Shown here in pieces: positions 1 through 37,260 of a stretch of 64,000 bases of DNA. The notes beneath the pieces were generated by a model, which did no database searches, was not told the DNA's origin, and worked only from the letters and a program-made list of their open reading frames with translations. How positions within the stretch are numbered: the stretch's first letter is position 1; each line of letters opens with the position of its first letter. Made by a program: the position numbers and the translations under genes. The stretch covers positions 8,868,001 to 8,932,000 of the forward strand of contig OZ076409.1 in assembly GCA_964187785.1 (NCBI GenBank), in the 5' to 3' direction. This stretch comes from Amphiscolops sp. MND2022. Taxonomy: Eukaryota.

Positions 1-2746
1 ATCGCTCTAACGACAGACTCGAGCTTGGCTGCTACTGGGTATGCAGTTCTCATCGAACACGATCCTAACCAGAAATTTACCTCACTTCGGAATTCGTACG
101 TACCGGTAGCCTATGGTTCAACACCTTCACCCCAACCCAGATAGAGATGTCTCTTTATGCAAAAGAATTTCTTGCTATTTGCTTCGCATTGAAAGAACTT
201 GGGCATATTATCTGGGGAGTCCAACAATAAAGCCGTGACTCAATTTTTCCAAGCGAAAATCGTACCCCCAGCTCTGTGAAATGCTTGTGACTACGTCATA
301 CAGTTTAACTTTGTCATAGCGCACATACATCCCAAGTGCACAAAACACGACAGTGGAATCAATTTCGGGTCAAGTTCTAGTCGGGATAAGTAAGTTACTT
401 ATCCCGACTAGAACTTGACCCGAAGGACAAACTAGTTATGAAAATCCGCGAGGACGTACAAACCCTACCAATGAAGATCAATGTCCAAAAAGCAGGAGTC
501 TCACAGGAAGAACAAATCTTATACACGAATGATGACTATGAGACGGAAGAGCAATTCTGGGCGAGAAAAGAAGCAATTCGACGGAATCCCGCCATAAAAG
601 AAACAACCATTATAATTCAAACTGTTTATAATCTACGAACTTGATCAGGCAACAACCTGATTCACAAGTCCGACTACGCAAGACGAATCAAATAACCATC
701 GTGCAATCCAAAGTTGCAGCATTACAGCAATTGAAGGCAAACACCTTCATGAGAAATACTCAGAAAGCATACTGCAACAGGATGCCTGATATAGACATTA
801 TGCAAACAACTTGGAACGAATTGTAGTCAAGAAAGATTTCCTGACAAAGCAATATTTTAATAAAACAGGGAACGTCAAATACCATCTTCTCCCGCAACAC
901 CTACTTCAGGAACAGCTTCAGTCCCTTCATGGGATGGCACCCTGGCATATCAAAGATGTTACAGGAGATCAGAGAGAGGTATTACTGCCCTAAAATGGCA
1001 AAACACGCTAAATAGTGGGTAGAAGGTTACGAACAATGCGCAAAGGACAAAAGCGTTCCCAACGCAACGATCAGCCTGAACTACGGAATGGGACCTTGGA
1101 CCCGAAAACGCTTTTCAGATTGACTTGACAAGTGGAGGATATGAAAATGTTCTAACTGCAATTGGTGTCTTCTCTCGATATCTGTTCGCTTATCCTCTTA
1201 CCGACGCTTAAGCAATCAATGTAGCGAAAGTTATCATTTTAAATATGACCAATAATGCGTAACTAACAACGACGCTCATTACTGATAAAAAAACTACATT
1301 GACTTCCACAATTATTGCTGAGATCACGCAAATTTTGGGAATTACACTCAAATGTGCAACAACAAAACACCCGCAAACGATTGGGAAATTGGAGCGAACT
1401 CATGCTTCAATCAAAACGAATCTCAAAATGGAATGTGTGGAATATCGCCGGCAATGGCACAAATATTTGCCATTAGCAGTTCTGAATAAAATACAAGCTA
1501 TCACGCCAGTATCGGTTGTGAACCAACAAGAGTATTCCATTGATGAGTTCCATACCATACCTTGGATCACAAGCTTGGAAATAATCCAAACAAACAAATC
1601 ACTCCGGCGACCGAATTTGTTGAAGAAATCCAGAATCGGAAAAAACTCCTAACTGACAAAACGAAGCAAAATATAATGCAGTCATACATAAAATACAAGG
1701 AGTTTTATGACCGCAAAGCAAAAGCTGCTTCGATCAAAGAAAATGACTTCTGTTTTGTATTACAGCCGAAAACAGATCACCAAGGATCAAAAACTCCATT
1801 TAGAGATTACCGTTGGGTTGGACCATTTATAGTCCAAAAAGTACAACAAAACGAGAATCACATAGTACGCTGGCTCAATACAAATAAATCTCAAATATTG
1901 CATCGCATTCGTCTTGAAAAGTTTGTTCCCAATCATTCGCTTGAGGACCAATTCCGAAAAGAGCGCTTGCAGCCGGATGAAGAAACTGTCGTTCCGCAAG
2001 ATGTTGATATATAATAACGTGGGAAAAAACTTCGGTAAACAGCTAGCTACGCAATGCAACGAGCCAATTCCGACTAGCTTGTCGAATGGTGAACAGCCGG
2101 TTACGTCAAACGCCGATTCAAATGAGGCAGACGAGAATGAAGTCGATTACATAATAACGAACGACAGTCCGAATGACGTCAATGACGCCGCGCAACAGCG
2201 GAATGAAAGATTAAATGATGACGTCAACAAAAGAATGAAAACTCTGATTGGCCCGAATTGGCCATTTGCCCCAAAAATCAGGAAAAGCCTTTGCCGAATC
2301 TGTCAGAAAGACAGGAAAACGATGCCAATTTCTAGAAGGAAAATTTTCTTATGAAAACGATGCACATAAGTCTCCGAAAAGGGGGGATGATATTATCGTG
2401 CCAGAAGTAACCTAAACTGACGCTAGAAATGAACTCTTTGCTTTCTACATAATTGGCCCTATTGAGGCCTGGCATAAGTGGCAATTAGTTGGCCCCATTA
2501 ACTTGCTAAGACACAAAAATGCGGAAAGTAAGATTTCAACTTCAAAGGAAGCTAAGGCAGTCGACATCAAAGGGGAATGAATTGAGTGCACGCGTCTCCG
2601 TTTCCGAGATTTCGTGTCTTGATTTCCGCAAAACGCTGAGAAAAAGCTTGCAGATGCACTGTAATATCTGAACCCTAGAGGAGGAAATACAACCAACCTC
2701 AGGCCTAACCCTAACCCAAACTAATCAGAAGATTTCAGTTACTAAG
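1..2746 (+). pseudogene. pol: Gypsy pol relic (RNase H and integrase)
   Basis: Fragments such as CATTKHPQTIGKLERTHAS, YRRQWHKYLPLAVLN, YKEFYDRKAKAA, WVGPF and the terminal PRGG...NLRPNPNPN match Pol at 27652-32829. Multiple frameshifts. Confidence 0.92.
364..424. repeat. Perfect 30-bp inverted repeat with 1-nt spacer
   Basis: 364-393 TTCGGGTCAAGTTCTAGTCGGGATAAGTAA is the exact reverse complement of 395-424. Confidence 0.95.
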
Positions 2747-2985: not shown

Positions 2986-5900
2986 CTAGTCTTTTAGAAG
3001 ACCCCTGAATAAGCTTCTTAGAGGACGATGAAACGCTTGAACTGGTACTGCCCGATCTTTTCCTCTGAGTTTTAGAATGAACCCGCACAGCGGATTCATC
3101 TGAATGGACAGAGCTCCTTCTTTCTCCAAACGAACCGAACGCGTAGAAGGAACAGCTACGACTTCCTTGTACAAAGCAAGTAGACCTTTGTAAATTTTGG
3201 ATCGATCAAAAGTATCGACGTGGGCCCAAGGATCGTACTCGGCAGAGAAAGCGGACCGTTCAAAAGAAGCACTAAGGAGCAGGAACTTCTCCAAGTCGAC
3301 TTCGGTAATACAGCTGGAGACGGAGTCAGGGACACAGGAGAGATAACTCTGACAAGGCATAAGCACATTAGTGAAGCGACTGCAAAACTCAGCCGTGTCG
3401 ACGCTCCCGAACAACACCGAAGGATACTGGCGACTAGGGCTGGTTAGGCACAGACAACAAAACCTGAAGAGGTAAAGGAGATGTTCATGGGTTTGGAATA
3501 ACTCAAGTCCCATCAGAAAATCTACAAGGTCGCTGGAGGTTTCAGATAAGTTGAAGTCAGGGGAATAATTCACCCGCAAATAGTCTAATAAGGCTATATA
3601 CTCCTCACGACAGACATTTTTGTTGGCGCTGGTCACCCAGGATCGAAGCTGGAAGGTTGAATAGAGTACATCGACGTGGCGGAGGCCTACCTCTGTACGG
3701 GTCTCTTAAAGAGACTGAAGGGGTCAAAGGCCGCTAATCCTTTGACTATCTCAGAGCTTAATGCCGGCTTGGTTGAGAACTTCTTTCAACAAATATTGAA
3801 TGAAATGCAGACCGTGTTTGGCGAAGCTAGAAGTTGCCTTTGCAGCAGTTTTGTCTATGGCGGCCGTCTCATTCAGGTGTACGACCTCTGCATTCTGCTT
3901 ACTGGCCGTTGCTACCTTGTTGACAAGGCGGAGCCGGACAAGGAAGTCGTCCTCTGTCATGAATTTGCCTTAACTGACTTTGAAATCGAGCAAAAGAAAC
4001 CATGAAGTCTCAAGCGGAATCGCCTCTGGCAGGTAACATCGGGAGCACAATTTGGAGACAAAGCGGCAAACTTCACCACAAAGGAAAAATGTTGCATCTC
4101 GTGTGCCCTGAAGGTTGACGGCGAAACGGGACACGTCCAGAAACACAAAGTGGATCGTATTGAGAGAACTACTAGGGTTAACCTAGTGCAATCTTAATGC
4201 AACATTTTGAAGCCTTATGCTATCATAACACCAAACTAGGGTCTTAGTATGAAACATCCCGTATACTCACAATCAGTGATGATTCGTATAAAAAACTCCA
4301 ATTTCACAACGAAGAAGGTGTCAAAAATAAGGGACCACTCGAAACTCTGGATCTGCAACAAAAGAATGAGTAAAGATGCACTCGACACGTGCAAAACTCA
4401 TGAGTACCCTGAACCCCCAGTCAATTATCGAAGCATGAATATCAGAAGGAGCCGAACTTGATTGTGGATCCTTTGCATCCCTTGATGTGGAGTGTGAGCA
4501 GTCAAGTAATGGCGGATTGCCTTCCAACGCTTCACCAATTCACGGTACAGATTGGGCAAATTAGGCAGATCTACTTTGCAAGAGGCAATAGCCTAAACAA
4601 ATCTTTATGAACAGCCTGACGTACCTACCTTTTAATATTTTTACCTTTAAAGATAAACAAAATTAACTAACTTGAGCCAATTCAGGCGATTGCAACAACC
4701 AGTCCTCAGAGGTAGCTGCTTCCAGTGAAACCATCAGGCACTGCAAGACCGAGAAAAAATCGATTCAGCCAAACACGTTAAAAGCTGGCTTGTGCATAAT
4801 CCTTTGGAGTCGTATGTACTCAAAGCGGAAGCTACGCTGCACTGCTTGTGAGAAGAAGCCACAACGGTCAATAGTATGAATCAGGTCGACTGGACATCCG
4901 GAACAAGCGATGATATCCGCTTTAGTGGACACAACAGAGAGGAGCCTGGATAAAGACCGTAACTCTCCAGTCAGATCTGAGGAAGGAAGCCATTCCGGCA
5001 AATTAAGATTGGTCATAGCGAATCACCCTTCCAGAACTTCCAGGACATGAGCCTGTTGGTGCCATTGGTCTCATACTTGCGCGCAAAGCACTGTGTGGTA
5101 GTCATTTGCTCAGCTACGTCCTCTATAGCGCAGTTGAAGATATGTTGGAAAATGGCCTTAAAAGGGAACATAAATACGTTGAATCTATTCCACCTTTACA
5201 CAGTTCGTTGATTTCAAAACGTTATTTGTCGAGACCCTGTCATCATCCCAATCAAAGTCACAATAGCAGGATTGGTAGCTCGTCAATGACCCAACATGGG
5301 GCCACAGTTTGCGAACAGAGAGATTTCCTTGTTGCTGGATGAAATCCCCGATGAGATGGAGCTGAATTTTTGCTCGGGATTCGGGGGCCACAAGTGTGGT
5401 GAGGTGCCCTTGACAAAATCATCGTAAAAGAGGAAACGTTCCCCTATGTCGACTAACTCAGCATGTATGAAATTCGGCTCCTCCTCCGCCAGCTCTATTT
5501 TGCTCAGGATTTTACCGTTGCGTCCTCTCACCCTGTGTTGCACTTTACTAGTGATTGGATGGACCCCTTAAAATGTTCATAGCGCCGTCGTTGGTCCCTC
5601 CTGAGGTGCTTCTCTGTCCGGTGGTGTCGCAGGAGTTCAAGGGTGCCCTTTGTTTTGACAGAAATGTTTTACTTACACATATGGCACCACGCCATATGAG
5701 GATTATGCAGAGGTCCGCCGGACCAGAAATGAAGGATCAGGTCCACCGAATCTTAGAGAAGAATTCCACCTTCATGGGAACGCCTCGAGTTGGGACTCGT
5801 CGCTTCGTTTTGGGCATCTTGCAAGAAACTGACGAATGGGGCTCGTCTGGCGTCGCCTGATGCGCAACTCTGAGAGTGTAGCATCAAGACTGGATCGCCC

Positions 5901-7230
5901 AGTGGATTCAAAACCTTCAGTACATGGATCTGTCATAATTCCTTCTTGGGCTCCAGAGCTGGACATTGTCCTGGCAGTTTCTTCGAAGGCTCTAGAAATC
6001 AGGGCCATTTCACTAAGACTATCGCCCTCATTGAAGGAGTCTGAAGCTTCCCCCACTCTGCCCGCGTTTAGTTCTCCTGTCGTGTCAGATGCTGGTCCAG
6101 AGTCACTCCCCTCATGAGCGCTATCACTGGGCCCACTAAGCTGCCTTGGTCTTGGTGTTTGGGCTCTAGACCGAGTCTTGAAATGGTCAGCCTAGACCAA
6201 GAGAAGACTGGTGTTCCCTTGACAGCTCCATTTACCATCTGCTCCATGGCGGTATAGGACGTTCTCAAGGTCTCGTCGGTTAAGACCCGAAGGAGATGAT
6301 ACACCTGAGGTTCTGTGAAGCTACCGTTCGATAGCCTAAAGGGAAGGTTATAGCATCAGCATCCTCATCAAAGTACTGCTTCAAAATTGCTTCACTGCGT
6401 CCATGCCATACCCGTAAACCTGTATCTTGCGGCGCGGAAGTGGTTGGCTCTGTCTGGTGGTTCAAGCAGCTGGAAGATACCGGCAAGGCTTCTACCCCCC
6501 CTGACAGGAGGCTCACTCTCTACCGGGCTATATCCATGTAGGACTGGGCCACTGTCTTGCTCGATGTGTCCCCAGTTTACTCAGCCCCAGTGCAGTCATC
6601 GAGGGACCTCACTTTGTTTTCTCCTTGGGGAAGAGTGGGTGCATCGCAAAAGGATGAACTGTCATCAGTTTCAGTTTGCCGGAAAGAGGCCGGAGACGTT
6701 TCACTAACCTGATCTACAGCGGGTAATAGTTCAGGCAGTGCAGTTCTTGAGGAAGTGGCAACTCTGAGTCTCCAATTGAGTCAGGTTCAGCTCCACATCA
6801 GTTTCAGTTGTACCAGGTGAAGGGGTACTAGTGCGAACGCAAAGGGAGTTGTTTCAGTGCTGGTTTGGGCGAAAGACAACTTTTCTGATTCATTCTTTTG
6901 GCCTTCTTTTTCTTCTCCTTCTTCTTCTCCTTCTTCTTCTAATTCTTCAGAATCGTCCGCAATTTACCCGCTATTCTGTTGGCCTGCTAGCCTTTGCGCC
7001 TCCTCGTGGATTCGGACCCTTTCTTCGGCGTATCCTGTGCCATTTACATTACTGTCAGTACTGCTGGGTGATCTGGGTGCTCTAATGGGAGGAAAAGGTG
7101 GGAAACAAACTATTGCTGGAGCAGGGGTGGTGTTCGAACCAGAGTCTCGTATCTGTGCTCTCTCAGTATTCTGATTACTGAAGCAGAAGGAGATGAAATT
7201 AGGTGGCGTGCTTCATTAGAAAAAATCCAT
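2986..7230 (-). pseudogene. Decayed copy of the spliced antisense zinc-finger/hAT-like accessory gene
   Basis: Homologous peptides: MDFF..STPPNFISF vs MDSYSGSEPRLFISF; HRVRGRNGKILSKIELAEEEPNFIHAELVDIGERFLFYDDF vs HHVRGRDGRRLTPYELQLELPKFIEEELVDIGEKLPFYDEY; EEYIALLDYLR vs EEYLSFLDELR. Splice sites sit at equivalent positions. Confidence 0.88.
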
Positions 7231-9472: not shown

Positions 9473-12400
9473 ACTAGCAAATTCTCCTAATCAAACATTT
9501 TTACCTGTTATTTTATTTTTAAAACGTTGCAATTTTAATTGTTTTATTCCATTAGTGTGTTAACAGTTTTTGAATGATAGTTGTGATTCTAACGATTTAC
9601 AAATTCAAGTAAAGGCAAGTTAAAGAAACAAGCTAAACAGTAGAATGGAAACGTGCTCGAGTGCGGAAACGTCCTTTCTCGGCAGCGTTACTTGCCAGCT
9701 ACATTCTAGCCAATCACAGAGCAGTACAAATAGTATTAGTCTGAGGGGTTGTTTTAATGGGCCGAATACGGCCAATTGACTAGAAAAAAGCAGTAAATAG
9801 TAGTATTCTAGTCAAGTAACCGGTTAGAGCCAATTACTTCTGATCACGCAATTTGTGCTACTATGTTAATTGATTTGTCATGGTAATACCCGGAACGTTC
9901 CTGTTGTTTGTTTTGCTTAGAGATGCTAGCTATGGTGTATAAACCTTTAGATCAATTGCGATGAAAGCCACATTCATTTTAGACTCAGTTTTTCCCAGAA
10001 TAACATGAATCTTGAAACATGAAAACTGGTGTCGTATTTAACCGAGCATGCACTTGTTTTACGTTCGAAAATATAGTTAAAATTGTTGATACTTGTTTGT
10101 AATACCATTGTGATAGTAAAGGCATTGGAATTTGTTGATTTCAATACTTAGATGTTGTTTTCCTTAGCCCCGATCTGGTCGAATCCTTAAAAGTGCTTTG
10201 ATGGAGCTGACGCGGCTATTAAAGAGTTGTGTTAAAGGTGGTCAATCACCTTGATCATGTGCTCCTTGAGGATTTTGTTTTTTGGAAAATATGTAGTTCG
10301 AGCTGATGAAATGCAATTGGAATGCTATTTTGCTTAATCAGTACTGTAAAAATGTGACTGGACTTTTTCAGGAGTAAATTTACCCCGGTTTATCCTAAGA
10401 GGGACAAAATCCAATTTTCCTTGCTTCGACTTAGTTTGATATCTAAAACTGTTCATAGTTTAACACTCTCATTTGATTTTCAACAGTAATAATATAAATA
10501 TTCTCGCTCGGATTTTCTTCAATGCCTACCACTAGAAAACAAAAGAAGGCTAGAAAATCGAGAGGACTAGAAATGTTCTCAGATATAGAAAACTTAGACA
10601 TAATGTTAGGTGAGTTGTTAGGTAGGGATACACAGAGAGAGGAAAGTGTGAACAGCAATCTCGCTAGAAGACCTGAAAGTGCCAATAGCAACATCTTTGA
10701 AAACAAGGAAGGAAATCAATACATAAGTCCTAGAATGATCGAATCTAGTAACGATGCCGGTCTCGGCCAAATGTCTACAAGCGCTAACTCTAGTGCTGAG
10801 ATCAACAAACTGTCATTTGAATTGAACTCAATGATATCTAGGGAGATGGATGAGGTGATCAATAGTGTCCGCGTTCAGATTCAGAGGGCAATTAATGATG
10901 CTATTAGTAATCAGGTATTACCCCAAATCGAGAATACCATCATGGCCAGATCGGGACATATGACACAGAGAGGATGGAACGTTCCTCCGTTATTTTATTT
11001 AAGAAACGTTGCTATTTTAATTGTTTCATTCCATTAGTCTGTTAACAGTTGTTGAATGATATTTGTGATTCTGAAGATTTACAAACTCAAGTGAAGGCAA
11101 GTTAAAGTAACAAGCTAAGCAGTAGACTTGAAACATGTTCGAGTGCGGAAACGTCCTTTCGCGGCAGCGTTACTTGCCAGCTACCTTATAGCCAATCACA
11201 GAGCGGTACAATTAGTATTATTTGAAGTGTTGTTAGAATGGGCCGAATACGGCCAATTGACTAGATAAAAGCAGTAAAAAGTAGTATTCTAGTCAAGTAG
11301 CCGGTTAGAGCCAGTTACTTCTGATCACTCAATATGTGCTACTATGTTGATTGATTTGTCATTGTAATACCCGGAACGTTTTTTTTGTTTGTTACATTAA
11401 ATAAAGGCTACTCAGCAATGATTTGTTGCTTAGAGATGCTAGCTTTTGTGTATAAATCTTTAGCTCAAGTGCCATGAAAGCCACATTCACTTTAGACTCA
11501 GCTTCTCCCAGATTAAATTCAGAACTCTGAAACATGAAAACTGGCGTAGTATTTAACCAAGCATGCACTTGTTTTGCGTTTGAAAATGTAGTTAAAAGTG
11601 TTGATACTTATTTCTAATACCATTGTGATAGTAGAGGTACTGGAATTTGTTGATGTCAAAACTTAGATGATGTTTTCCTTACCCCCGATCAGGCCAAATT
11701 CCTAAAGGTGCTTTGATGGTGCTGACGCCGCTATTAAAGAGTTGTGTTAATGGTAGTCAACCACCTTGGTACACCTTGATAATGTGCTACTTGAGGAATA
11801 ATTTGTTGGTTGGAAAATATGTAGTTCGGGCTGATGAAATGCAATTGGAATGCTATTTTGCTTACTCAGTAATGTAAAAATGTGACTGTCATCTTCTCAG
11901 GAGTATATAAACCCCTGTTTTGCCTGAAAGTGTCACAATCCAGTTTTCCTTGCTTCGACTTAGTTTGATATCTAAAACTGTTCATAGTTTAACACTCTCA
12001 TTTAATTTTCAACAGTATAAAAACAAATATTCTCGCTCGGATTCTCTTCAAAGCCTACCACTAGAAAACAAAAGAAGGCTACAAAATCGAGAGGACTAGA
12101 AATGTTCTCAGATATAGAAAATTTAGACATAATGTTAGGTAAGGTGTTAGGTACGGAGACACAGAGAGAGAGGAAATTGTGAATAGCAATCTCGCTAGAA
12201 GACCTGAAAGTGCCAATAGCAATATCTTTGAAAACAATGAAGGAAATATTTACATAAATCCTAGAGGTATCGAATCTAGTAACGATGCCGGTCTCGGCCA
12301 AAATTCTACAAGCGCTAACTCTAGTGCTGAGATCAACAAACTGTCATGTGAATTGAACTCTAGGATTTCTAGGAAGATGGATGAGATGATGAACGGTGTC

Positions 12401-14165
12401 CGCGTTTAGATTCAGAGGGCATTTAATGATGCTATTAGTAATCAGGTATTACCCTAAATCCAGAATGCCATCAAGGCCAGATCGGGACATAAGACACAGA
12501 AAGGATGGAACGTTCCTCCGTTATTTTATTTTAGAAACGTTGCTATTTTAATTGTTTCATTCCATTAGTCTGTTAACAGTTGTTGAATGATATTTGTGAT
12601 TCTGAAGATTTACAAACTCAAGTGAAGGCAAGTTAAAGTAACAAGCTAAGCAGTAGACTTGAACATGTTCGAGTGCGGAAACGTCCTTTCGCGGCAGCGT
12701 TACTTGCCAGCTACCTTATAGCCAATCACAGAGCGGTACAATCAGTATTATTTGAAGTGTTGTTAGAATGGGCCGAATACGGCCAATTGACTAGATAAAA
12801 GCAGTAAAAAGTAGTATTCTAGTCAAGTAGCCGGTTAGAGCCAGTTACTTCTGATCACTCAATATGTGCTACTATGTTGATTGATTTGTCATTGTAATAC
12901 CCGGAACGTTTTTTTTGTTTGTTACATTAAATAAAGGCTACTCAGCAATGATTTGTTGCTTAGAGATGCTAGCTTTTGTGTATAAATCTTTAGCTCAAGT
13001 GCCATGAAAGCCACATTCACTTTAGACTCAGCTTCTCCCAGATTAAATTCAGAACTCTGAAACATGAAAACTGGCGTAGTATTTAACCAAGCATGCACTT
13101 GTTTTGCGTTTGAAAATGTAGTTAAAAGTGTTTATACTTATTTCTAATACCATTGTGATAGTAGAGGTACTGGAATTTGTTGATGTCAAAACTTAGATGA
13201 TGTTTTCCTTACCCCCGATCAGGCCAAATTCCTAAAAGTGCTTTGATGGTGCTGACGCCGCTATTAAAGAGTTGTGTTAATGGTAGTCAACCACCTTGGT
13301 ACACCTTGATAATGTGCTACTTGAGGAATAATTTGTTGGTTGGAAAATATGTAGTTCGGGCTGATGAAATGCAATTGGAATGCTATTTTGCTTACTCAGT
13401 AATGTAAAAATGTGACTGTCATCTTCTCAGGAGTATACAAACCCCTGTTTTGCCTGAAAGTGTCACAATCCAGTTTTCCTTGCTTCGACTTAGTTTGATA
13501 TCTAAAACTGTTCATAGTTTAACACTCTCATTTAATTTTCAACAGTATAAAAACAAATATTCTCGCTCGGATTCTCTTCAAAGCCTACCACTAGAAAACA
13601 AAAGAAGGCTACAAAATCGAGAGGACTAGAAATGTTCTCAGATATAGAAAATTTAGACATAATGTTAGGTAAGGTGTTAGGTACGGAGACACAGAGAGAG
13701 AGGAAAGTGTGAATAGCAATCTCGCTAGAAGACCTGAAAGTGCCAATAGCAATATCTTTGAAAACAATGAAGAAAATATTTACATAAACCCTAGAGGTAT
13801 CGAATCTAGTAACGATGCCGGTCTCGGCCAAAATTCTACAAGCGCTAACTCTAGTGCTGAGATCAACAAACTGTCATGTGAATTGAACTCCAGGAATTCT
13901 AGGAAGATGGATGAGATGATGAACGGTGTCCGCGTTTAGATTCAGAGGGCATTTAATGATGCTATTAGTAATCAGGTATTACCCTAAATCCAGAATGCCA
14001 TCAAGGCCGGATCGGGACATAAGACACAGAAAGGATGGAACGTTCCGGCCGAGGGACCGTAAACAAATGGTGAAGTTCTGCGGTATGAAAAGGCCAGAAA
14101 TAATTCGCAAAGTGAGCTTGTCCAAAATCGCCTTAATGACGGACCCATAGACAATGCTTCTGACA
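9378..14165 (+). repeat. 3' LTR of the decayed element with an internal ~1.53-kb unit in three tandem copies (~9505-10985, ~10986-12515, ~12516-14045)
   Basis: Equivalent ORFs recur 1,530 bp apart (12002/13532, 12179/13709). Copies 2 and 3 are nearly identical; copy 1 is more diverged. Confidence 0.85.
10522..11037 (+). pseudogene. gag: LTR-borne Gag N-terminus (decayed family member); broken copies near 12052 and 13582
   Basis: MPTTRKQKKARKSR...SDIENLDIMLG matches MPSTRRQKAKEKRSR...SDIENLDVMLG of the intact Gag. Confidence 0.85.
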
Positions 14166-17100: not shown

Positions 17101-18858
17101 AACGTTAATCGAGGAGAAATCTGCAATCACTGAGGAACATGGACGTGGGTCATATTGGTTAATAAATCAGTTTGTGTCACGGTTGGGATGATAGGCTTTA
17201 CACTAACAGTTTATCAGGCTAAACGCAGAAAACCTGCTTTTGGCAGTCCAGTCTTGTCCCTGGAAAACAAGTTGGATAAAGTTTCATCATCTTAATAAAA
17301 TTGAATTTGTGGCCGGCTAAGATTCGGTTCGCCCGACAACAAAGTTTCCTAAGACTAATAAGAAGAGATGAGTATCAGTTCTGTCCAAAAAAGATACCGT
17401 GATAGTCAGCGTTATGAAGTTTGAGATGCATAGCAGTGTCGTCTGATGGGCACGCATTGCCTCCATTTTATTTCCATTTTCTCCTACTTAACTCTTCTCC
17501 TGCGACTGCACAGGCGCCTTGCCTCAATTTGTCTCAGTCCCAGCCACAGCCAGTGTTCATACTTTTCGTCGGTCTTCCACCTGCCAGATCGGCTAGCACG
17601 GTCGTCGAAATCCTATTTGCTTCCATATCTCTTCCATATTAGCTCTTTCATATCTCTCAACCTTTCATCTAGCATTGTATCGTCTACGTCTTCCACAGCG
17701 GCTGTCGCTGGGTTCCAACGCATGTTCACCTGGATTTGGTTTTTAGGTTTGACCATCAGTTCTGTCAACTGCACTTGACGTTCCGGAAATGTATCCCTAT
17801 AAAATATTCCCTGGCTGCGAACAAGCACGTCAAAGTTGTTCATCATCGCGGTACACGTCATCACATCTGGGTGGGGCGCTCAGGAAGCTTCTGCATTGAC
17901 TCCACAGTGCTTGTCCTGAGAAACACCGTTTGATTTTTGAGCCTCGAAACAAGCATTCCATCGTTCCTTGTATTTGCAGGCGTTCTATCGTCACTTGTAT
18001 TGGCAGGAAACAATATTTCGCAAGAACAACCGTTCGGATTCGATTCAACATCCAAATTTCGCTCACGTTCATGCCTCTTGTCTTTCTCATATCCCACAGT
18101 GAAGAACTGATTGACATGCGACCCACGTGGGTTCGTTTGATGAGTAGTTCAGGAGCATCTCCTAACCCTTCCACGTTTTTCAGTTTGTCTGTGATCTGCT
18201 CACTGGTGAAAGTAAGGAACACAATCGCTTTTCTGAATGAATGAACGGAGGTTTTGAAAGAATAAAACCCCGAATTGTGACCAAAATTGACAAAAAAAAC
18301 GAAACTTTCAATTTTTTTTGGTATTTACATTTTTGTCAAACTTTCGAAAGACTTCGTGGATTTAAAACTGAAAACTTTGGGCTGGAAAAAATTTTTGTCC
18401 AGTAGACTTTTGTGAAGAGAAAAAAGCATTTGTTCGAACGAAAAATTCCTGAAACTGTCCCAAAAAACCCACAAACCCTTTTTTGCCAGTTTTTGTTGTT
18501 TTTCATACAAGTTGTGCACAATTTCCCCGATTGTTCATAGGTTAGAGGGTTCAAAAAGTTTATAGATGAAAAAACAAAAAAAACCTAGCTATGCACTACA
18601 CCTCTTTGAAGAGAAAGTTTCAGTGATTTTCGTTTTCAAATCCATGTTCCTGGAGAAGTTCAATTACTTTTTATCGGTTTTGATCAAATTCTTGCAGAAC
18701 TTGTGAAATTTTTTGTATTCCGAAATATCGAAGGTATTCTCAAGCAAGTTTTTCCAACAGGTTTACACAATCGTTCATATTGAGAAAAATCAAACGACAT
18801 TTTTGTCGATTTCTTGTCCGCTTTCGATATAGTTTCGTAAATTGAAAGGCTAATCAAA

Positions 18859-19610
18859 TGTAACGACCGGCTAGCGACGCACATCTAGGAAGAGGGACAA
18901 TGCCTAGGATGCTTAAACAGGAGACCGTTGTCTTACTACATACCTAGACACTAGTTTTTGATCCCAAAATGGTCTCCAAGGGGGACTTTTCTAACGTCTA
19001 AGGAGGCTTCTCTAGTTAGAGCTCCGAAGCGACGTGCCGGCACTCTCAAAGTCCGGACACGCCCCACAAGCCTGTAAAAACGTATCCTAGGTTCCTAATG
19101 CGTTCCTGCTATCTCCTACATACTTCCGAGGTCCAAAAAGGTGTCTAACTGAAATACATTATATGAGTGAATAAGGACTAAAATGAGGACCTAGTAGGTC
19201 AAACATTATCAAAATACGCTATAAACAGTCAAAACAGGTGGGGATAGGCCCCAATAAAGTATACAGTTACATTTCGGTGGCGATCATCGGCTTCCTGCCT
19301 CTGGCATCATTCCTCATCTTCGGGGCACAATGGTCTCATTTGGCACTTTTCTGCCAAAACCCTGTCTTTTTGCTGTCAGATGGCAGAATTCCTGATTCTC
19401 ACGCCTTCTGGGTGATGACATCTCGGACATTCTCGTTCCTGGGTGGTGGGGTGGGTCTTCTGGTGGTCGTTTTGCTTTCATTTTGCTTCCTCTACGGTTT
19501 TCGTACCTGCCGGGTCGGCCATCTTGAATGTGCTTGTTTGATACCGCACATTTCGAATTTTTGATCGAAATTTTCAAAAATTTCTGCAACGCCGACTGCC
19601 GGACGTTACA
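18859..19610 (-). repeat. 3' LTR of the non-autonomous element
   Basis: TG...CA ends; matches 23492-24243 with one difference seen (ATCAAAAT vs ATCCAAAT). Confidence 0.93.
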
Positions 19611-19620
19611 TCCTCCCCGG
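19611..19620 (-). promoter_or_regulatory. Polypurine tract (CCGGGGAGGA on the minus strand)
   Basis: Purine-rich tract directly abutting the LTR. Confidence 0.7.
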
Positions 19621-23475: not shown

Positions 23476-23491
23476 TAAAAACTATTCCAGA

Positions 23492-24243
23492 TGTAACGAC
23501 CGGCTAGCGACGCACATCTAGGAAGAGGGACAATGCCTAGGATGCTTAAACAGGAGACCGTTGTCTTACTACATACCTAGACACTAGTTTTTGATCCCAA
23601 AATGGTCTCCAAGGGGGACTTTTCTAACGTCTAAGGAGGCTTCTCTAGTTAGAGCTCCGAAGCGACGTGCCGGCACTCTCAAAGTCCGGACACGCCCCAC
23701 AAGCCTGTAAAAACGTATCCTAGGTTCCTAATGCGTTCCTGCTATCTCCTACATACTTCCGAGGTCCAAAAAGGTGTCTAACTGAAATACATTATATGAG
23801 TGAATAAGGACTAAAATGAGGACCTAGTAGGTCAAACATTATCCAAATACGCTATAAACAGTCAAAACAGGTGGGGATAGGCCCCAATAAAGTATACAGT
23901 TACATTTCGGTGGCGATCATCGGCTTCCTGCCTCTGGCATCATTCCTCATCTTCGGGGCACAATGGTCTCATTTGGCACTTTTCTGCCAAAACCCTGTCT
24001 TTTTGCTGTCAGATGGCAGAATTCCTGATTCTCACGCCTTCTGGGTGATGACATCTCGGACATTCTCGTTCCTGGGTGGTGGGGTGGGTCTTCTGGTGGT
24101 CGTTTTGCTTTCATTTTGCTTCCTCTACGGTTTTCGTACCTGCCGGGTCGGCCATCTTGAATGTGCTTGTTTGATACCGCACATTTCGAATTTTTGATCG
24201 AAATTTTCAAAAATTTCTGCAACGCCGACTGCCGGACGTTACA
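23492..24243 (-). repeat. 5' LTR of the non-autonomous element
   Basis: 752-bp direct repeat of 18859-19610. Confidence 0.93.
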
Positions 24244-25002
24244 AAACTCCAAAAGATTTATACAGCCAAGAAGTACGCCCCAAATATGAAATTAGAAGTT
24301 TCCAATGAAGACCAATACCACAGATTGAACAAACAGTCGATAAGTTTTCATGCGTCAGATTAATCAAAATATTCAACAAAAAAGCAGTATCAAAATTGCG
24401 CTCTCTGGGAAAAGGGTCTCTTGTAAGTTGAGAGTCTCAAAAGAGCCCAAATTAGTCGGGAAAATCATAGCTTGCCATATTTTTTACAACTTCAATGTTT
24501 CTTTTTCAGAGTTATGCAGTTTCGTGGACAAACAACACCTCAGAATAACCCAAAAGTTTCGAAACGCTTTTGACGTTTTTATGCAGCTTTTCCATAAACT
24601 TGTTTAGCAATTTACTGGCGTGCAAGATTTTAGAAACACAAAAATAACTAAGTGTGGTATCCAGCAGTCGGTTTTGATAGAAATAATCACGAACTTTTGT
24701 TAGAATTGGTCTCGAAGAAAGCACCAAACCAAAAAAAATATATATACTTTTTGTGACACAATATTTCCAGTTTTCGTTCACGACTTGCTCGTAGAACAAA
24801 ACATCCATTGGCAGTTCATTGAAACAATGGCAGTTCAAATCGATGGAAAGAAAAATGGGATTAAGTCACTCGAATTTGAGAACAACGTGTCAAAGCATCC
24901 GAGGTTTCTCAGTTATCCGAAAGTCTTCCCTCGTTAGAAAATACACGAGCAAGCTCGAAACATAAATAAGTACCTATACGGGTTACGAAAAAATAATTAT
25001 AC

Positions 25003-26501
25003 TGTCGCAGGCGGCCGCCTGTGACGGAATATTATATCAAGTTGGACCCGAAGACGATGACACTAATCCCAGACCGGGTGTTTTGCCTATTTAAGAGAAA
25101 AACTCCGCAATACGTTAATTATTTAGTTAACAATCCCCTCATGCATTTTAGTTCATTCATTCTTATTCATCTCTACATGTAAATATGAAGTCTTATTAAT
25201 GTGACTCAAGGTCATTTTGACGGCATGAATAATTATATTTTGGTGCAATCTTATGTAAATTAGTTGTTACATCGCATTAATAACAATAATGTGAACTAGT
25301 ACCAAAAGGTGCAAAACGCTGTACAAGCAGTTAATTTGATTGACGTTAATAATAACAATAGAAAGCAAGATGACTATCCAAGTGAAAGGAAACGCGTTCA
25401 ACTGGTACGCTGCTGCCGTCTAGTTGACGCGTAGTCACTTCGCTTCTAACCAATCACGGCGCTACATTTAGTTATAGTTCAATGCCGTCATGCGGACGTT
25501 AGGTCCAATTAGTTAACGCATGTAGTGTTAAATCTGTAGTTGCATGAAAATCACCGTTAGCATGTACCTGTTATTAACCAGTATGTTGCTTCTATTTATA
25601 GAACCTATGACGTGTAGTCATATGTCACCTCCGTTGCTATATTTAGAATTGTGACGTAATAGTTATTTTTAATAATGATGTCATTACTATTTTTACCCAA
25701 TGACACCCTAAATATTGAGTGTCATGCTGTAGTTGCTATATATATGCAAATTTCCAGTAAGGGATTCATTCAATACGATAATCTCAATACAAACCGTTCT
25801 GTCATACACTTTCGATTCAACAATCTACTATTGAACAAAACCTTCTTTTGATATGCCTTCAACTAGAAGACAAAAGGCGAAAGAGAAACGTTCAAGGCAA
25901 TCCGACATAATGTCTGATATTGAAAATCTAGATGTGATGCTCGGAAATTATTCAAACACTGAATTTAGGGACCAAAACGCAGTAGATGAAATAGAGATTG
26001 ACCCTGAGTCAAATAGACGGCATCAAGGTTTTAGCCATGAGGAAAGTAACTATAGGTCTCTTTTGAATGCAAATTTGAGTGAGAATAGTGAAGTTACAGT
26101 AGAAACCAGTAGAGCAATCAGTTCGGAAATTTCTTCACAAATGTCAAGGAAATTGGAAGAAATGAAATCTGACCTAAATTCCCATATTATGGAGGTAATA
26201 AACTCCGCTATTGATGAGAAAATACTACCTAGCATCGAAAACGTCATAGTAAATCATGGGGAGCGCAAAAACGCTAAGTTGGACCTTCGGTCAGATGGAC
26301 GGCATCCGAGTAGAAATGTCCCTATGGACCAAACTTTGGACCTTGGGTCATATGGACGGCATAAAAATAAGTTCAGCCAACAGGTCCAGGACTCAGGAGA
26401 GAATTTTCCTAGACTAAACACAACAGTAAATAACCTTCCAAGTCATCAAATGGAATGTTTAGGAGATTCTGAACAAAGTGAAAATGAAGAAGGTTATGAC
26501 A
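25003..26501 (+). repeat. 5' LTR (1,499 bp)
   Basis: Direct repeat of 39485-40983, no differences seen. Starts TGTCGCAGG, ends TTATGACA. Confidence 0.96.
25736..25746 (+). promoter_or_regulatory. Candidate LTR TATA box (CTATATATATG), with a CCAAT box at ~25450
   Basis: TATA-like run ~110 bp upstream of the gag ATG. Position only, no transcript evidence. Confidence 0.35.
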
Positions 26502-27649
26502 TGGTGACAGGAGCCAACCTTACTCCACATGTAGTCCCTGAATTTCTGACCGGACGTCCCACGCAGTCCAGGAACAAAATTCCCCATCAACACTGCGTCA
26601 ACGATGACACATTAGATACCACTCTCCCGGCACAAATTCCCTCAAACCATATCAATGACCGGGAAATGCAGCCCCAAACACCTTTAGACCCCATAAACAG
26701 ACTTGCCGATGTCATTATGGGAATGAACAACAAATCATCAGCACAAACACTGATGGTACGACCAGTCAATACTGCCACACTCACATTTGACGGCAAATCT
26801 GAAAAATTTGAACTGTTTGAAGACCTTTTTCACACGGTGATAAAGATGCAACCCGAGATGACGGAAGCAATGAAAATTAATCACTTTCATTCACTGTTGC
26901 GCAAAAATGCCCTGCAAACCTTCCGCAACATCAGTTCAGCAAATAGACAAACCTTAGAAGACGTACTAGCTGTGTTTCGTAGGAAATATGTCAAACCTGA
27001 ATCCCAGGCAACTGCCAAACATAAATGGCACAAATTGGTATTTGACCCAAACACAATGAAATTGCCCGATTTTCTCGAGGAACTCAATCAGGGCGCCGAA
27101 AAAGCCTTTGGCGAGCACGCACAAGCCATGATTGACAGCCTGCTATACGCAAAACTCCCACCGAAACTCAAACGTTCAGTCAACATGGCGCGATTAGAGA
27201 ATGCCACCTATGAAGAAATTGTCACTCATCTCGAACGAGAACTGGAGTTGAATGGACTTGAGGAAGGCGACGACATTCCCGTTCCCACAATGTCAACAGC
27301 CCCGACAGCCACACGACCGGGTCAAGGACTCCTTTCATCAGGCATTGACCCAGGAATAACTTGCAACTACTGCAAAAAACCTGGACATGTCAAAGACGAT
27401 TGCCGAAAACTAAAACGAAAGGAAGAGCAAAAACGCAATGAAGGCTCGAGTACCAAAAAAGAGTACCCAAAGTGCCCGACTTGTGACAAAACCAATCACC
27501 CGGCGGAGAGATGTTGGAAAGGCGCTGGAGCCCACCTCAAGCCCAAAAACCTCAAATTGGATAGTCCAAAGGATGACGACACGACCAGTAGCCGTGATGA
27601 CCCTACCAATAAACCCACAACTTCTATTCTTAAAAACTCAAAAAACTAG
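25853..27649 (+). CDS. gag: Gag polyprotein (598 aa) with two CCHC zinc knuckles
   Basis: CNYCKKPGHVKDDC and CPTCDKTNHPAERC; capsid-like region FDGKSEKFELFEDLF; lies directly upstream of pol. Confidence 0.93.
   Translation: MPSTRRQKAKEKRSRQSDIMSDIENLDVMLGNYSNTEFRDQNAVDEIEIDPESNRRHQGFSHEESNYRSLLNANLSENSEVTVETSRAISSEISSQMSRKLEEMKSDLNSHIMEVINSAIDEKILPSIENVIVNHGERKNAKLDLRSDGRHPSRNVPMDQTLDLGSYGRHKNKFSQQVQDSGENFPRLNTTVNNLPSHQMECLGDSEQSENEEGYDMVTGANLTPHVVPEFLTGRPTQSRNKIPHQHCVNDDTLDTTLPAQIPSNHINDREMQPQTPLDPINRLADVIMGMNNKSSAQTLMVRPVNTATLTFDGKSEKFELFEDLFHTVIKMQPEMTEAMKINHFHSLLRKNALQTFRNISSANRQTLEDVLAVFRRKYVKPESQATAKHKWHKLVFDPNTMKLPDFLEELNQGAEKAFGEHAQAMIDSLLYAKLPPKLKRSVNMARLENATYEEIVTHLERELELNGLEEGDDIPVPTMSTAPTATRPGQGLLSSGIDPGITCNYCKKPGHVKDDCRKLKRKEEQKRNEGSSTKKEYPKCPTCDKTNHPAERCWKGAGAHLKPKNLKLDSPKDDDTTSSRDDPTNKPTTSILKNSKN
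26502..26513 (+). promoter_or_regulatory. Primer-binding site TGGTGACAGGAG (possibly tRNA-Leu), inside the gag ORF
   Basis: TGG immediately follows the LTR's terminal CA. One mismatch to the recalled tRNA-Leu(CAG) complement TGGTGTCAGGAG. Confidence 0.7.
27640..27646 (+). promoter_or_regulatory. -1 programmed ribosomal frameshift heptamer A AAA AAC
   Basis: In the gag frame directly before TAG; the pol frame is -1 and opens only at 27634. Confidence 0.85.
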
Positions 27650-27651
27650 AT

Positions 27652-30600
27652 TTGCCACGACTCCATATTAATGAAAAATTACGTGTCAGACAATATATAA
27701 TATCTGATCCTCCTACAATATATTATACTGAATATTACTCTTCAATTAAAGAAACTTCATCAGCTGACTGGCAGCAGCAGGTGAAGCATTTGCCTACTCA
27801 CTTACACAAACCGGACCTTCAGTCCGACAGACAGCACTCTAATACTACGACCATTCGCCCCCTTCACCTAATTGATAACTACAACCCATATTATCCTGAC
27901 CCGGACTTCGGATTCGACCCCTATTGGGACATTCAAATCTACAACCAACATCAGCTACATTTCTACAAAAACTTTACCAAAAACATTGCAGATATCGAAC
28001 ATGATCAACCCCATATTGATCAGATGCTGAACACAAAACTATCCTCAGCCTCTGTTGACCCCTGGCAAAATGTGTGGATTAACACCAATTCACCAATCCA
28101 GGAGGAAACAACCGAACAACTTCCACACAATGGACCTTTGGTCACATTGACGGCAACAGTGGAAGAACGCTTTGTGAATAAGCTGATCTCACGAAACGGT
28201 GAACCTGACTACGTCCCGTTGACGACCAACTTGGGACTCAAATACAAACGACGGATGCTCTACTTCCCCATGGATTTTGGCGAACTAACTTTAGATGGCC
28301 TTGTAGACACGGGAGCCCTATCTAGCGCTATCCCAGAAGCTGATCTACGTAAAATCCGATTGTTAGCCCCTCAGTCAATAATTAAAGAGGGCCCGGCACC
28401 CAACTTCCAGATTATGGTAGCCAATGGACAGCTGGAGACTCCAAAGAGCACTGTTGAACTCAAATTCGAAGTCGGGGACATCGATTTCCACGAGATCTTC
28501 ATTGTTATGGAAAAACTCACAAGTCCGTTAATTGGTCTCTCGTTCCTGCAACGGAACAATACCATACTGGACATGCGTCAAGGAGTTTTGAACTTCCCTT
28601 TCTTCTCCATGCAACTGAAAACCGCTGACCACAAGTACACTAACGTCATGGAACCTATCTGTGCGCGGGAGGATATAACTATCCCCCCCAACGACAGACA
28701 TATGGTTTCCATGTTCTCACAACTCTATGACGACACAAACGTCACTGGAATTCTTCAACCGAGCAATGACCTTGCAGAAGATGGTGATATAACCTTCTGC
28801 GCTGCTCTAGTCACACTGACCCAAGGTCAGGTATCAATTCATGTCAACAACTTCACTGACCAACCGTTCACCCTCAAAAGAGGTGCTCACATTGCCAATT
28901 TCTCTGTCCTCACACCAGAGCAGATGAAATACGTCAAACCCATTGATCCTGTGACCACTTGGCACCTTTTGAAGGATAACCCGGAAAATGCTGCCTATTA
29001 TGCCAGTAGCCTGATCAAATCCCCGAAAACTAACGATGATAGTGAGAACTACTGGTTCCCTACTCCAGAAGAACCAGGAGATCCTCAAACTCATACACCC
29101 ATACAACAAAGAATCCTTAGGGAACTACGAAATCTCCAAGATTTAGAGAAACTCAACCCTCAGGATGACCCTGAATCGCGGAAACAATTTCTTGCTAACT
29201 TTGACTGGACAGACTCTACGCTGAATCCAGCCGAAATTGCCCAAATTGAAGAATTACTTGTTGAATTTCACGACATTTTTGCACGACACCGCTTTGACAT
29301 AGGTATGAACGAAGACTTCAAGGTCACTTTGACCCCTAAAGATGATTCCCCTGCCTATAGTCAAAGCTTACCTACTCCTATCAACCTCAAAGAAGATATC
29401 CTTGTAGAACTAGCACTACTACATCGATATGGGATTATAACAACTCTCCCATTTTCCAAATATGCAAGTACCATCTTTGCCCAGAAAAAACCTAACGGCA
29501 AACTTCGACTCCTGGTTGACCTCCGAAAGATCAACAACCTGATTTCTGACGATTACATCAACAACAACCATCCTGTCAGCACACTAACGGATGCTGCGCA
29601 GCACATGGCAGGTAAACGATTATTTTGCAAACTTGATTGTTCTCAAGCATACCACTGCCTTCAGATGGCTGACCAGAGGTCAATCGAGATGCTGGCATTC
29701 AATTTTGCCAGCAGAACATTTGCCTATCGCCGACTTGCCCAAGGTCTAAGCAGAGCGCTGTCCGCATTTTCGAGCTTTATGCGCGAATACCTGGATAAAG
29801 TGATAAAAGCTGACCAATGTGCTCAGTACGTAGATGATATTGGGATAGCTGCAAATGACGCTACCCAGCTCATCAACAACCTTCGAGCAACGTTCCAGTG
29901 CATCAGGACCGCTGGCCTCAAACTAACGATGCACAAATGCCATTTTGGCGCCAAGGAAATCGACTTCCTGGGACGTACCATCACTCCTGATGGGGTGCGG
30001 CCACAACGACCCAGGGTCCAGAATTTCTTGGAAAAGACCAAATTCCCTAAATCCAAGAAAGCTCTTCAACGATACTTGGGATTCCTGAACTACTACCGCA
30101 ACTACATTCCTAGACTCTCAGAAAAACTCACACCGTTCTTCAAGCTATTGAAAAGTGATGCCAAAGTCATGGTGACACCCGATCTGTTAGAAAAATTCAC
30201 CGAGATCAACAAAGCTCTTGACCGATGTTGTGAACTGGCGCTCAAACAACCTCTACCCGACAAACAGATAGCCCTGATGACAGACGCTAGTTTTTCGGCA
30301 GCAGGTTATGCAGTTCTCATCGAGGACGATCCGATGGAAAAATATACTTCGACGCGAAAAGCCTTCGCACCTGTAGCATATGGATCCAAGACCTTTAGTC
30401 CAGCCCAACTGAAGATGTCCATTTATGCCAAAGAATTCTTAGCAATATTCTTTGCATTTAAAGAATTTGGCCATATCTTCTGGGGGACCCCGAAACCGGT
30501 GATAATACTAACAGACAACAAGTCAGTCACTCGCTTTTTTCAAACAAAAATCATTCCACCCACATTGTGGAACGCGTGTGACTACGTTATGCAATTCAGT

Positions 30601-32829: not shown

Positions 32830-33047
32830 TTAGAATATGTAAATTCACTGGCCCGACTCAACATCTTTTGACCCTACAATTATCTTTTTATGGGCCTCGA
32901 CTGACTTGTAGTCCACAATAACAGATCAAACACAGGCATCATAATGACACAACTGTACAAACAAAGAACTAAAATAAACAAACCCAAAACTGACAACAAA
33001 TGAAAGATACATAAATACAACTAAAAACAAATGTACATATAGTACAA

Positions 33048-36000: not shown

Positions 36001-37260
36001 GATACTGGCAAAGTCATCTCCGCTCCTGAGTGCGCCACTGGTGTCGCTCTCATTCCCGGTCAAGAATCCGGATTGGGAACCAAGACTGCTACTTTGCTCC
36101 AATGGTCTTTGCGCTTTTGGAATCTCGCGGGGAGTGCTGCCAGGAGTTCCAAGACTAAGTTTACTAGCCTGTTGTATCAGGTTCTCCATAGCCTTGAGTG
36201 ACGACTTAACAGCTTCGTCAGCAACTACTTTCAAGACTTGGCAAACTTGGCCTTCGTTTAGGGCCAAGGTCGAATGCCCAGCCGGCAGGGTCACTGGGGT
36301 AGCTTCTTCGAAAAATTCTTTTATCAAGGCTCGACTGCTTGCAGACAATTGAGCAACTCGGGGTGCCACCTCAGGAAAGTCTACTGAAGTATTGCTAGCC
36401 GTTTCACAAACTCTAAACGTGTGTGAATTAGCAGGAGCGAACAAAGCGTCAGCTACCGTGGACCCTACTGCGCCCTCAGAATCTTGGCAGGTGTCGCTGG
36501 ACTTTTGATTTGATGGACCTTGTCGCGCTTTGTTTTTGAAATTGGAAACTCCAAAATCGTCAGACGACGGATCATCATCTTCAGACAATGAGGGAAGCCC
36601 GGTCTCATCTGCTGCAACAGATAATTCTTCTCTTCCACTACCCACCTTTCCACACAGTTTCTGGATTTTTGCTTCCGGGGGGCCGTATCTCGACTTCAGA
36701 CTGCTCTTCAAGGGAAACTTTGGAGGATCGAGGAATGCAACCTCAGAGACAGAGTCAGTGTCCATTTCATCCTGACTTTGGAGACCTTGGGTTGGGGCCA
36801 ATTCCATAGCGAAGCTCTCACTGGTTTTCACAATTTTGCCGCCGTCTTGACTACCGGTCCCAGTTTCTGGGACGCACCCCAGTTGCTCCCATTTTCGAGC
36901 GATGTAGGCTCCGCAGCTTTCGTCAGTGCTACTGCTTTCAACAAGTAGAGTTTCAGTCGTGGTAGGTGGGGTGACGGCGGTAGTGGACAAGACCACAGGA
37001 ACTTCAGGTAACGAACCCAGACCAGAACGAGGTTCACTCTCCCGATGCGCATCCTCAGAAACAACTTCCATCGCACCTTGAGCTGGAACACTTATAGTCG
37101 TTTGTGCAGAACTGTCAGTGTTTGACGCAGCCGTCACGAAAGAATCAGGACTCTCCGGTTTCTCTTCATCAGCACCACGTTTGGGTGGTTGGCCATTTGA
37201 CTCATTTCCTAAACGGAATGAAATAAATAATCGCGGTTCACTTCCTGAATATGAATCCAT
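33048..37260 (-). CDS. Spliced antisense accessory gene, exons 37260-35188, 35093-34608, 34539-34405, 34335-34254, 34177-33048 (~1,301 aa): long disordered N-terminus, C2H2/BED-like zinc finger, hAT-transposase-like C-terminal half
   Basis: Four GT-AG introns (94, 68, 69, 76 nt) join the ORFs in frame; total 3,906 nt. Zinc finger FYCQICKGNISIYGRGAREILRHHATERH. Intron positions are conserved in the 2986-7230 copy. Confidence 0.8.

Follow-up and report, generated by a model that had tools for sequence, protein, structure and literature searches.

Shared intron positions in a decayed and an intact copy of a probable antisense accessory gene of a Ty3/gypsy-like retrotransposon family

Why should two strongly diverged copies of a gene that lies in retrotransposons keep their introns at the same places? 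The question is raised by a stretch of 64,000 nucleotides from Amphiscolops sp. MND2022 (assembly GCA_964187785.1, contig OZ076409.1, positions 8,868,001 to 8,932,000 of the forward strand), which is here called the window and in which all coordinates are counted from the first letter. The window holds an intact long terminal repeat (LTR) retrotransposon with an antisense gene for a protein of 1301 amino acids (aa) and, at 7230-2986, a decayed relative of that gene. An earlier sequence-only reading had proposed that all four intron positions are shared by the two, and had taken this as a sign of long vertical inheritance rather than recent capture. The decayed gene is very probably a dead copy of an accessory gene that is fixed in a large Ty3/gypsy-like family and would have a spliced product; that the product acts in trans for the element is a tentative proposal with less than even odds.

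Intron positions in the two copies and across the family

In the intact element the gene occupies the region from pol to the 3' LTR; it is read in the direction opposite to gag-pol and is tail-to-tail with pol. Its model was rebuilt on the minus strand and came out, as had been claimed, at five exons and 1,301 aa. Every intron runs from GT to AG, the intron phases are 0,0,0,1, and exons 2, 3, and 4 measure 486, 135, and 82 nt.

33048-37260, minus strand: intact accessory gene, five exons (37260-35188, 35093-34608, 34539-34405, 34335-34254, 34177-33048), 1301 aa

When the 1301-aa protein was searched by tblastn against the window, the decayed copy was located from about 7230 to 3193 on the minus strand, in stretches of 24-54% identity that occupy three frames and contain stops. 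Its parts are as follows (a slash marks a splice site).

5230-7230, minus strand: exon 1 remnant, starting MDFF and two stops, with a CCHH finger region at about 5728-5570; three frames with stops
5157-5229, minus strand: intron 1, 73 nt, phase 0, donor mutated (TCG/ACAAAT), acceptor TTTTAAG intact
4672-5156, minus strand: exon 2, 485 nt, shorter by a 1-nt deletion than the intact exon (486 nt)
4593-4671, minus strand: intron 2, 79 nt, phase 0, GTTAGT..TTTAG
4458-4592, minus strand: exon 3, 135 nt
4353-4457, minus strand: intron 3, 105 nt, phase 0, GTTCGG..TTGCAG
4271-4352, minus strand: exon 4, 82 nt
4137-4270, minus strand: intron 4, 134 nt, phase 1, donor T/GTGAGT intact, acceptor mutated to GG
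2986-4136, minus strand: exon 5, interrupted by four in-frame stops where it aligns, and 31% identical over 320 aa to exon 5 of the intact gene

The introns were placed by a script that takes all donor/acceptor pairs near each junction and scores the spliced peptide against the junction peptide of the intact gene; scoring was run twice, once with any pair and once with GT/GC..AG pairs only. All four introns of the decayed copy match the intact gene in protein position and phase (0,0,0,1). Exons 2-4 together with the four introns fill window 4137-5229; the range of 4178-5240 given before stops short of the intron-4 acceptor at 4137. Six of the eight splice dinucleotides are still canonical. The first exception had already been recognized in the sequence-only reading, namely the mutated donor of intron 1 beside an intact acceptor; at that place the relatives L010, L013, L015, L016, and L018 read GTAAGT or GTAGGA, and L012 has only GTG. 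The second is the acceptor of intron 4, which reads TCTGG where relatives have TCTAG (TTTCTAG/AC in L010 and L012, TTTCCAG/AT in L018). The earlier view that exon peptides, phases, and splice signals are kept holds for the junction peptides, all of them correct as given, and for the phases; of the splice signals, donor 1 and acceptor 4 are mutated. The ends proposed for intron 3 (GT..TTGCAG) were found again, at 4457-4353, as was the phase-1 donor of intron 4 at 4270.

For intron 2 the proposed donor at 4671 stands and the proposed acceptor does not. Use of the CAG at 4616 adds 23 nt and leads to a stop after 14 codons. The acceptor TTTAG/GCT at 4593 yields AIASCKVDLPNLPNL, matching AVRTCRIELATLPTL, and restores AIASCKVDLPNL, matching AVRTCRIELATL; TTTAG or TTCAG is kept at this place in 7/7 aligned sequences.

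The same script was applied as a decoy control to 96 junctions within exons of six copies, 79 of which could be scored. In 71 of them the outcome was 'no intron', and none came out with a canonical intron that scored 6 units or less below the best solution. The claim of four shared intron positions is borne out by the placements and this control together. The intron sequences themselves show an identity of 0.41-0.58 between clades (intact copy and L026 against L034), as compared with a mean of 0.55 and a maximum of 0.63 after shuffling. They lie within the shuffled range and are thus unrelated, as had been noticed before.

Further copies of the gene were grouped into four clades, A (with the intact copy) to D, with the decayed copy in clade B. 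In clade A (the intact copy and seven others) 31/32 junctions are canonical and have the same place and phase, the exception being the broken intron 1 of L021. In clade C (two copies analysed of three fetched) all 8/8 junctions are canonical and the exons again measure 486/135/82 nt. When the spliced products of seven copies from clades A, B, and C were aligned, the junctions fell in identical columns (141, 305, 356, and 386). The exon lengths 486/135/82 recur in A, B, and C, and intron lengths range from 66 to 156 nt. The phase-1 split codon is retained in all clades.

Two introns are missing from particular lineages. The clade-B copies L033-L036 have introns 1, 2, and 4 (12/12 canonical) and lack intron 3 to the nucleotide, reading CAA/GTGCAG where relatives read CAA/GTTAGG...TTGCAG/GTCCAG. 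A genome search in the clade of the decayed copy gave 33/40 scored places without this intron. Since intron 3 is present in clades A and C and in other B lines, a single loss is the simplest reading of the trees. Clade D (L044-L046) has introns 1, 3, and 4 in phases 0, 0, and 1 with canonical ends, save for an ATTAGT donor 3 in one of the three copies. It has no intron 2, and its exons 2 and 3 form one stretch of 621 nt (486+135), followed by an exon 4 of 82 nt. Loss of intron 2 in D and gain in A to C are both compatible with these data. The exact absence of intron 3 in one B subfamily and of intron 2 in clade D may be the mark of real splicing followed by reverse transcription.

Selection was estimated between clade-A sublineages, where residue identity is 0.75-0.83 and identity at third codon positions 0.40-0.50; synonymous divergence (dS) is saturated. 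In the two pairs where it could be estimated, the ratio of nonsynonymous to synonymous divergence (dN/dS) was 0.04 and 0.09. Very young pairs gave dN/dS 0.5, as expected from decay after insertion. These values point to strong purifying selection on the accessory gene, acting across all exons.

Could the four segments be tolerated spacers between separate open reading frames (ORFs), or the gene be non-functional everywhere? In favor of such a reading, splicing is here read from the DNA alone, and public protein sets contain exon-sized ORFs only, with no protein of 1211-3455 aa found. Against it stand the GT..AG ends with pyrimidine tracts at 31/32 clade-A junctions, the frame that is open only once the segments are removed, the phase-1 split codon in all clades, the invariant exon lengths beside introns of variable length, the exact absence of two introns in separate lineages, and the purifying selection across all exons. 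With these points taken together, it is most unlikely. The gene model, by comparison, is supported by frames that open after splicing, by the clade-A junctions, and by the two exact intron absences. With the predicted introns removed, five copies (the intact one, L025, L026, L027, and L034) can be read without interruption as far as the natural stop.

The database relatives are consistent with a real first intron. All 26/26 aligned relatives carry a GTN codon (V) directly after the end of exon 1, and 25/26 end at most 40 residues beyond it; P0100 continues through intron 1 and exon 2. The GTN codon and the early stop are what intron 1 leaves behind when ORFs are called in the prokaryotic manner. 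A search of the public protein sets for predicted family members of 1211-3455 aa gave none, which is weak evidence, and the spliced product seems not to be annotated in that protein collection. As only exon-sized fragments are present there, annotation pipelines miss the accessory protein.

The gene within the element and its predicted protein

The intact gene is carried by a complete Ty3/gypsy-like LTR retrotransposon at window 25003-40983. No mismatch was seen between its two 1499-bp LTRs, and it is flanked by a 5-bp target-site duplication (TATAC at 24998-25002 and 40984-40988).

25003-26501, plus strand: 5' LTR, 1499 bp, TG..CA ends
25835-32829, plus strand: gag (DUF1759) and pol (protease, dUTPase, reverse transcriptase (RT), RNase H, integrase)
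38713-39576, plus strand: orfx, a sense frame of 287 codons, 92 nt of which lie within the 3' LTR
39485-40983, plus strand: 3' LTR, 1499 bp, TG..CA ends

The pol frame has 1731 codons and the domain order of Ty3/gypsy elements, with Pfam matches to protease (aa 220-307), dUTPase (342-423), RVT_1 (618-783), RT_RNaseH (875-985), Integrase_H2C2 (1172-1227), and rve (1248-1343). The dUTPase domain between protease and RT corresponds to window 28657-28902 (E 1.1e-06, 28.9 bits, cut-off 22). Between the stop codons of pol and the antisense gene there is a spacer of 218 bp. The 5' LTR is followed by TGGTGACAGGAGCCAACC, and the 3' LTR is preceded only by GGGGAG. The gag frame begins within the LTR; about 216 of its codons fall in the 5' LTR (25835-26501) and recur in the 3' LTR (40317-40983). 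The frame also crosses the candidate primer-binding site. Between clades, the LTR-borne part of gag has a protein identity of 34-35% over 121-196 aa (clade-B loci L037, L033, and L038, and L039, L036, and L040), and this conservation as protein suggests that it is really coding.

Two clade-B elements have homologues of orfx at 28-38% identity, and the decayed element has one at 31% over 152 aa; orfx had no Pfam match. It may be a second accessory gene, with a spacer of about 1.45 kb between it and the antisense gene, from which it diverges.

In all copies examined (24/24, four clades) the accessory gene lies tail-to-tail with pol at a constant spacing. Sixteen further copies fetched from the genome all (16/16) have gag-pol on the opposite strand adjoining the 3' end of the gene. 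Two full clade-B elements are built as LTR, gag, pol, antisense gene, orfx, LTR, with LTRs that are 97-99% identical. Clades C and D were reached via database proteins that map in or near this genome, and are represented by shorter loci (L041-L046) that cover the 3' end of pol. One database protein, P0268, matches this genome at 29% at best, and the family may thus occur in another genome as well. Both have pol tail-to-tail with the gene, whose identity to the intact protein is 47-67% per stretch in C and 21-26% in D. The decayed element keeps the order of parts of the intact one (pol, antisense gene, orfx, LTR with the start of gag).

1-2002, plus strand: pol remnant of the decayed element (RNase H to integrase), cut by the window edge, matched by tblastn to pol aa 879-1553 at 41-73% identity
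9032-9454, plus strand: orfx homologue of the decayed element, 31% identity over 152 aa

Beyond the latter, at about 9507-14050, three tandem units of about 1530 bp are 89-100% alike, and in each there is a gag-start homologue; the decayed element seems to have had its LTR amplified in tandem here. In one clade-B element elsewhere, the 3' LTR is duplicated in tandem.

The gene is present in most copies of the lineage, as was found at 40/40 and 40/40 scored places in two genome searches. Protein searches with exon 5 gave 7804 and 7276 first-look candidates, of which 109 and 100 were scored; the matches listed (110 and 100) were all significant, and in most of them a frame of about 360-440 aa is open. 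Thousands of copies of the element family may be present, and they may make up a sizeable share of the 1.07-Gb genome.

These arrangements also bear on whether the gene belongs to an independent mobile element, or to a host gene family, that is merely near these retrotransposons or inserts into them. The finger described below is of a kind common in transposase-derived proteins, and an Atlas search returned rows for zf-C2H2_12 and zf-BED (0.88-0.89) and for MULE (0.80-0.82), all of them leads only. Yet the gene is enclosed by the two LTRs of an element whose target-site duplication is perfect, 24/24 copies keep the same spacing to pol, no terminal repeats of its own were seen, and no transposase family or fold was matched. 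An independent origin of this sort is hardly credible.

As to the protein, five parts can be told apart: an N-terminal region that is acidic and variable, a basic stretch, the one finger, a middle region that is conserved, and a helical C-terminal domain. Conserved features are the N-terminal motif MDxFxGSxPxxFISF, which is common to the database relatives, the basic stretch, and the single CCHH finger. The finger has the form C-x2-C-x16-H-x5-H, and C44, C47, H64, and H70 are invariant in 28 sequences; the aromatic residues W24 and F28 are conserved upstream of the ligands. The pattern C-x2-C-x16-H-x5-H with upstream aromatics typifies BED fingers. In finger spacing and in W24 and F28 the protein thus resembles the BED- and C2H2-type fingers of transposase-derived proteins, from which it differs in that no zf-BED or zf-C2H2_12 Pfam match was obtained in 28 members and no transposase core was found. 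In numbers, zf-BED (PF02892) and zf-C2H2_12 (PF18658) matched 0/28 members in Pfam at E <=1. A C2H2 model (PF25420) was met below threshold in 16/28 members (best E 0.00014, 19.2 bits in a window piece, with a cut-off of 27). When metagenome contigs were scanned with the finger-region alignment, 402 pattern matches were obtained and none was confirmed.

The 375 aa of exon 5 are confidently predicted to form an all-helical C-terminal domain with a mean predicted local distance difference test score (pLDDT) of 80.8; the model of the finger region has a mean pLDDT of 58, which is too low for a fold search. A MULE transposase was considered and rejected, as its Atlas rows stay below 0.9, it has neither a Pfam nor a fold match, and the domain is all-helical. 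The accessory product is possibly, and we say so tentatively, a nuclear nucleic-acid-binding factor that works in trans for the element, in the regulation of transcription or in a step of replication.

Descent with pol, exchange, and the weighing of the explanation

DNA trees were built for pol (RT, RNase H, and integrase; 16 rows) and for the accessory gene (18 rows), and clades A and B are split with full support in both. Protein trees of integrase and exon 5 were built from 13 rows, 10 copies with short or broken stretches being left out. All four clades come out in both, D being the most distant. The pol tree leaves the order of A, B, and C unresolved and the accessory tree groups (A,C), which is no conflict. 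The accessory gene evolves several times faster than pol, and its divergence scales with that of pol.

These trees have to be held against a second alternative, in which each element clade recently and separately captured a host gene and the shared intron sites are those of the host gene. Shared intron positions alone do not separate this case from long residence in the element, and the accessory module does move between sublineages by recombination. Against separate captures, the place, the orientation, and the neighbors (pol and orfx) are equal in A and B, and the tail-to-tail arrangement extends to C and D; both trees recover A to D and place D outermost; the gene diverges in proportion to pol, at several times its rate; and 24/24 copies examined are element-borne, where no search was aimed at a free-standing host copy. 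Recent capture is thus very unlikely. The preferred explanation remains an accessory gene of long standing in the family, where intron sites, phases, and exon lengths are constant because all copies descend from one ancestral gene. Over the same descent the introns have changed in sequence, and so have about two thirds of the residues.

Under this explanation the orientation of the gene would be decisive. In the genomic RNA of the element the introns are reverse-complemented, would therefore be unseen by the spliceosome, and would pass through reverse transcription into every new copy. Transcription of the accessory gene would start upstream of 37260 at an antisense promoter inside the element, the host would splice the mRNA, and the product would act in the nucleus on nucleic acid, to the benefit of the element. 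Intron loss would follow when a spliced antisense mRNA is reverse-transcribed and then recombines with an element copy.

Several results weigh against the explanation as a whole or against parts of it. The first is that the pol and accessory trees disagree inside clade A. The intact element and L026 are 96-100% identical over 26311-32710, 90% identical over 32711-33110, and about 70% identical from 33111 on, and this drop indicates a recombination breakpoint in or near the 218-bp spacer between pol and the accessory gene. By this comparison, the whole accessory module appears to have been swapped between sublineages of one family by recombination, with no host capture, and the gene behaves as an exchangeable module. 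Inheritance has thus apparently been long but not strictly vertical. Of the proposal of long vertical inheritance, the long residence in the element is kept and the strict verticality is given up; likewise, the comparison of pol and accessory-gene trees suggested at the time gave compatible clades A-D and, inside clade A, the incongruence that had been named beforehand as a refutation.

Weaker junctions form a second group. In six more decayed clade-B copies, only 14/22 scorable junctions gave a canonical solution, and among these 14 the one for intron 2 of L031 is distrusted; two junctions had anchors too weak to score. The same intron sites are visible in the DNA alignment of clade B. The clade-D junctions lie 1, 7, and 3 alignment columns off those of A-C at 26% identity. 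We take these offsets to be gap noise, and positional identity in clade D would then rest on exon lengths and phases.

The remaining points concern expression and function. No AATAAA was found downstream of the accessory-gene stop, and the promoter, the transcript ends, and the splicing are proposed from DNA. Pfam gave no family over its cut-off in the window pieces or in 74 relatives, which counts against the assignment of a function. For the exon-5 fold, Foldseek against the PDB returned nothing at E <=0.001 (best E 1.6), and the best Z in a wide VIA-align search was 6.1, within noise for helical models. Profile searches of PDB sequences with both alignments gave 0 hits at E <=1.

A bolder version of the explanation can be stated, although it is unlikely to hold in full. 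Here the family would need a third, large, spliced minus-strand gene (in at least four clades, down to 26% identity), the spliced mRNA of which enters reverse transcription and recombines with the genomic copy. If this were true, the genome would be a natural record of template exchange between the sense genome of a retroelement and its own antisense message.

Known systems and other repeats of the window

The layout with an antisense gene between pol and the 3' LTR is already known. In plant Ty3/gypsy elements (gene23 of maize Grande, rice RIRE2, and Silene Retand), the relevant portions of PMC7264820 and PMC11963269 describe an antisense extra ORF between pol and the 3' LTR with a TRP28 domain (PF04195). 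According to the same portions, these ORFs occur in all or most copies of their lineage and are thought to be nucleic-acid-binding and to regulate the element, and for the antisense gene of Grande a promoter of its own and a nuclear product have been reported. The plant genes are described as single ORFs, and the word 'intron' occurs 0 times in PMC7264820 and PMC11963269. The place, the antisense orientation, and the presence in most copies are shared with the family described here. Unlike the plant genes, the present one has five exons, 1301 aa, and a protein family without PF04195 (no TRP28 hit at E <=10 in the window pieces, nor at E <=1 in 74 family members), and it is carried by an element whose gag has DUF1759, in a host that probably belongs to a group other than plants.

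A deltaretroviral gene offers a further comparison. HBZ of human T-cell leukemia virus type 1 (HTLV-1) is an antisense, spliced regulator with its start in the 3' LTR, a single intron, and a small basic leucine zipper (bZIP) protein as product. The gene described here is likewise a minus-strand retroelement gene, for which host splicing and a regulatory role are proposed. It differs in having four introns, all within the coding part, an ATG 2.2 kb inside from the 3' LTR, and no bZIP. Antisense retroviral genes are also mentioned in PMC11963269. From fungi, brtn has been described as the antisense gene of the Boty-like (BcGypsy1) elements of Botrytis cinerea (Zhao et al. 2011, Virology 417:248, as cited in a passage of PMC8365987). 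It is also an extra antisense gene in a Ty3/gypsy family; the protein encoded here, a large one with a single CCHH finger, has no sequence relationship to it.

Keyword searches of open-access text gave no description of an intron-bearing antisense gene of an LTR retrotransposon outside plants, fungi, and retroviruses; PMC12477816 and PMC8220671 offered general remarks only. The present family stands apart from the known systems in the size of the gene (four introns, 1301 aa), its unclassified and unrelated protein, the depth at which the exon structure is conserved, the intron losses, the module swap, and probably the host group. The family suggests that a multi-exon gene can ride in a retrotransposon over the long term with its introns kept, provided that it faces backwards. 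The intron-less variants would be in-genome evidence of splicing and of intron loss mediated by reverse transcriptase, and the sharp breakpoint presents the accessory gene as an exchangeable module. A checked gene model is now available for a family of possibly thousands of copies, and a protein without known family or fold is a candidate for a new kind of element-encoded regulator.

A direct repeat of 763 bp (18852-19614 and 23485-24247, spacing 4633 bp) is at least 90% identical, with the first 300 bp identical; a small element of another kind may have these two as its LTRs. Dispersed repeats of 80-130 nt (families D6, D10, D13, and D14), among others at 41567-41662, 42262-42357, 45093-45244, 56818-56970, 58823-58975, and 62064-62144, are possibly a short non-autonomous element. 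Finally, a unit of 2005 bp is duplicated in tandem at window 56253-60269.

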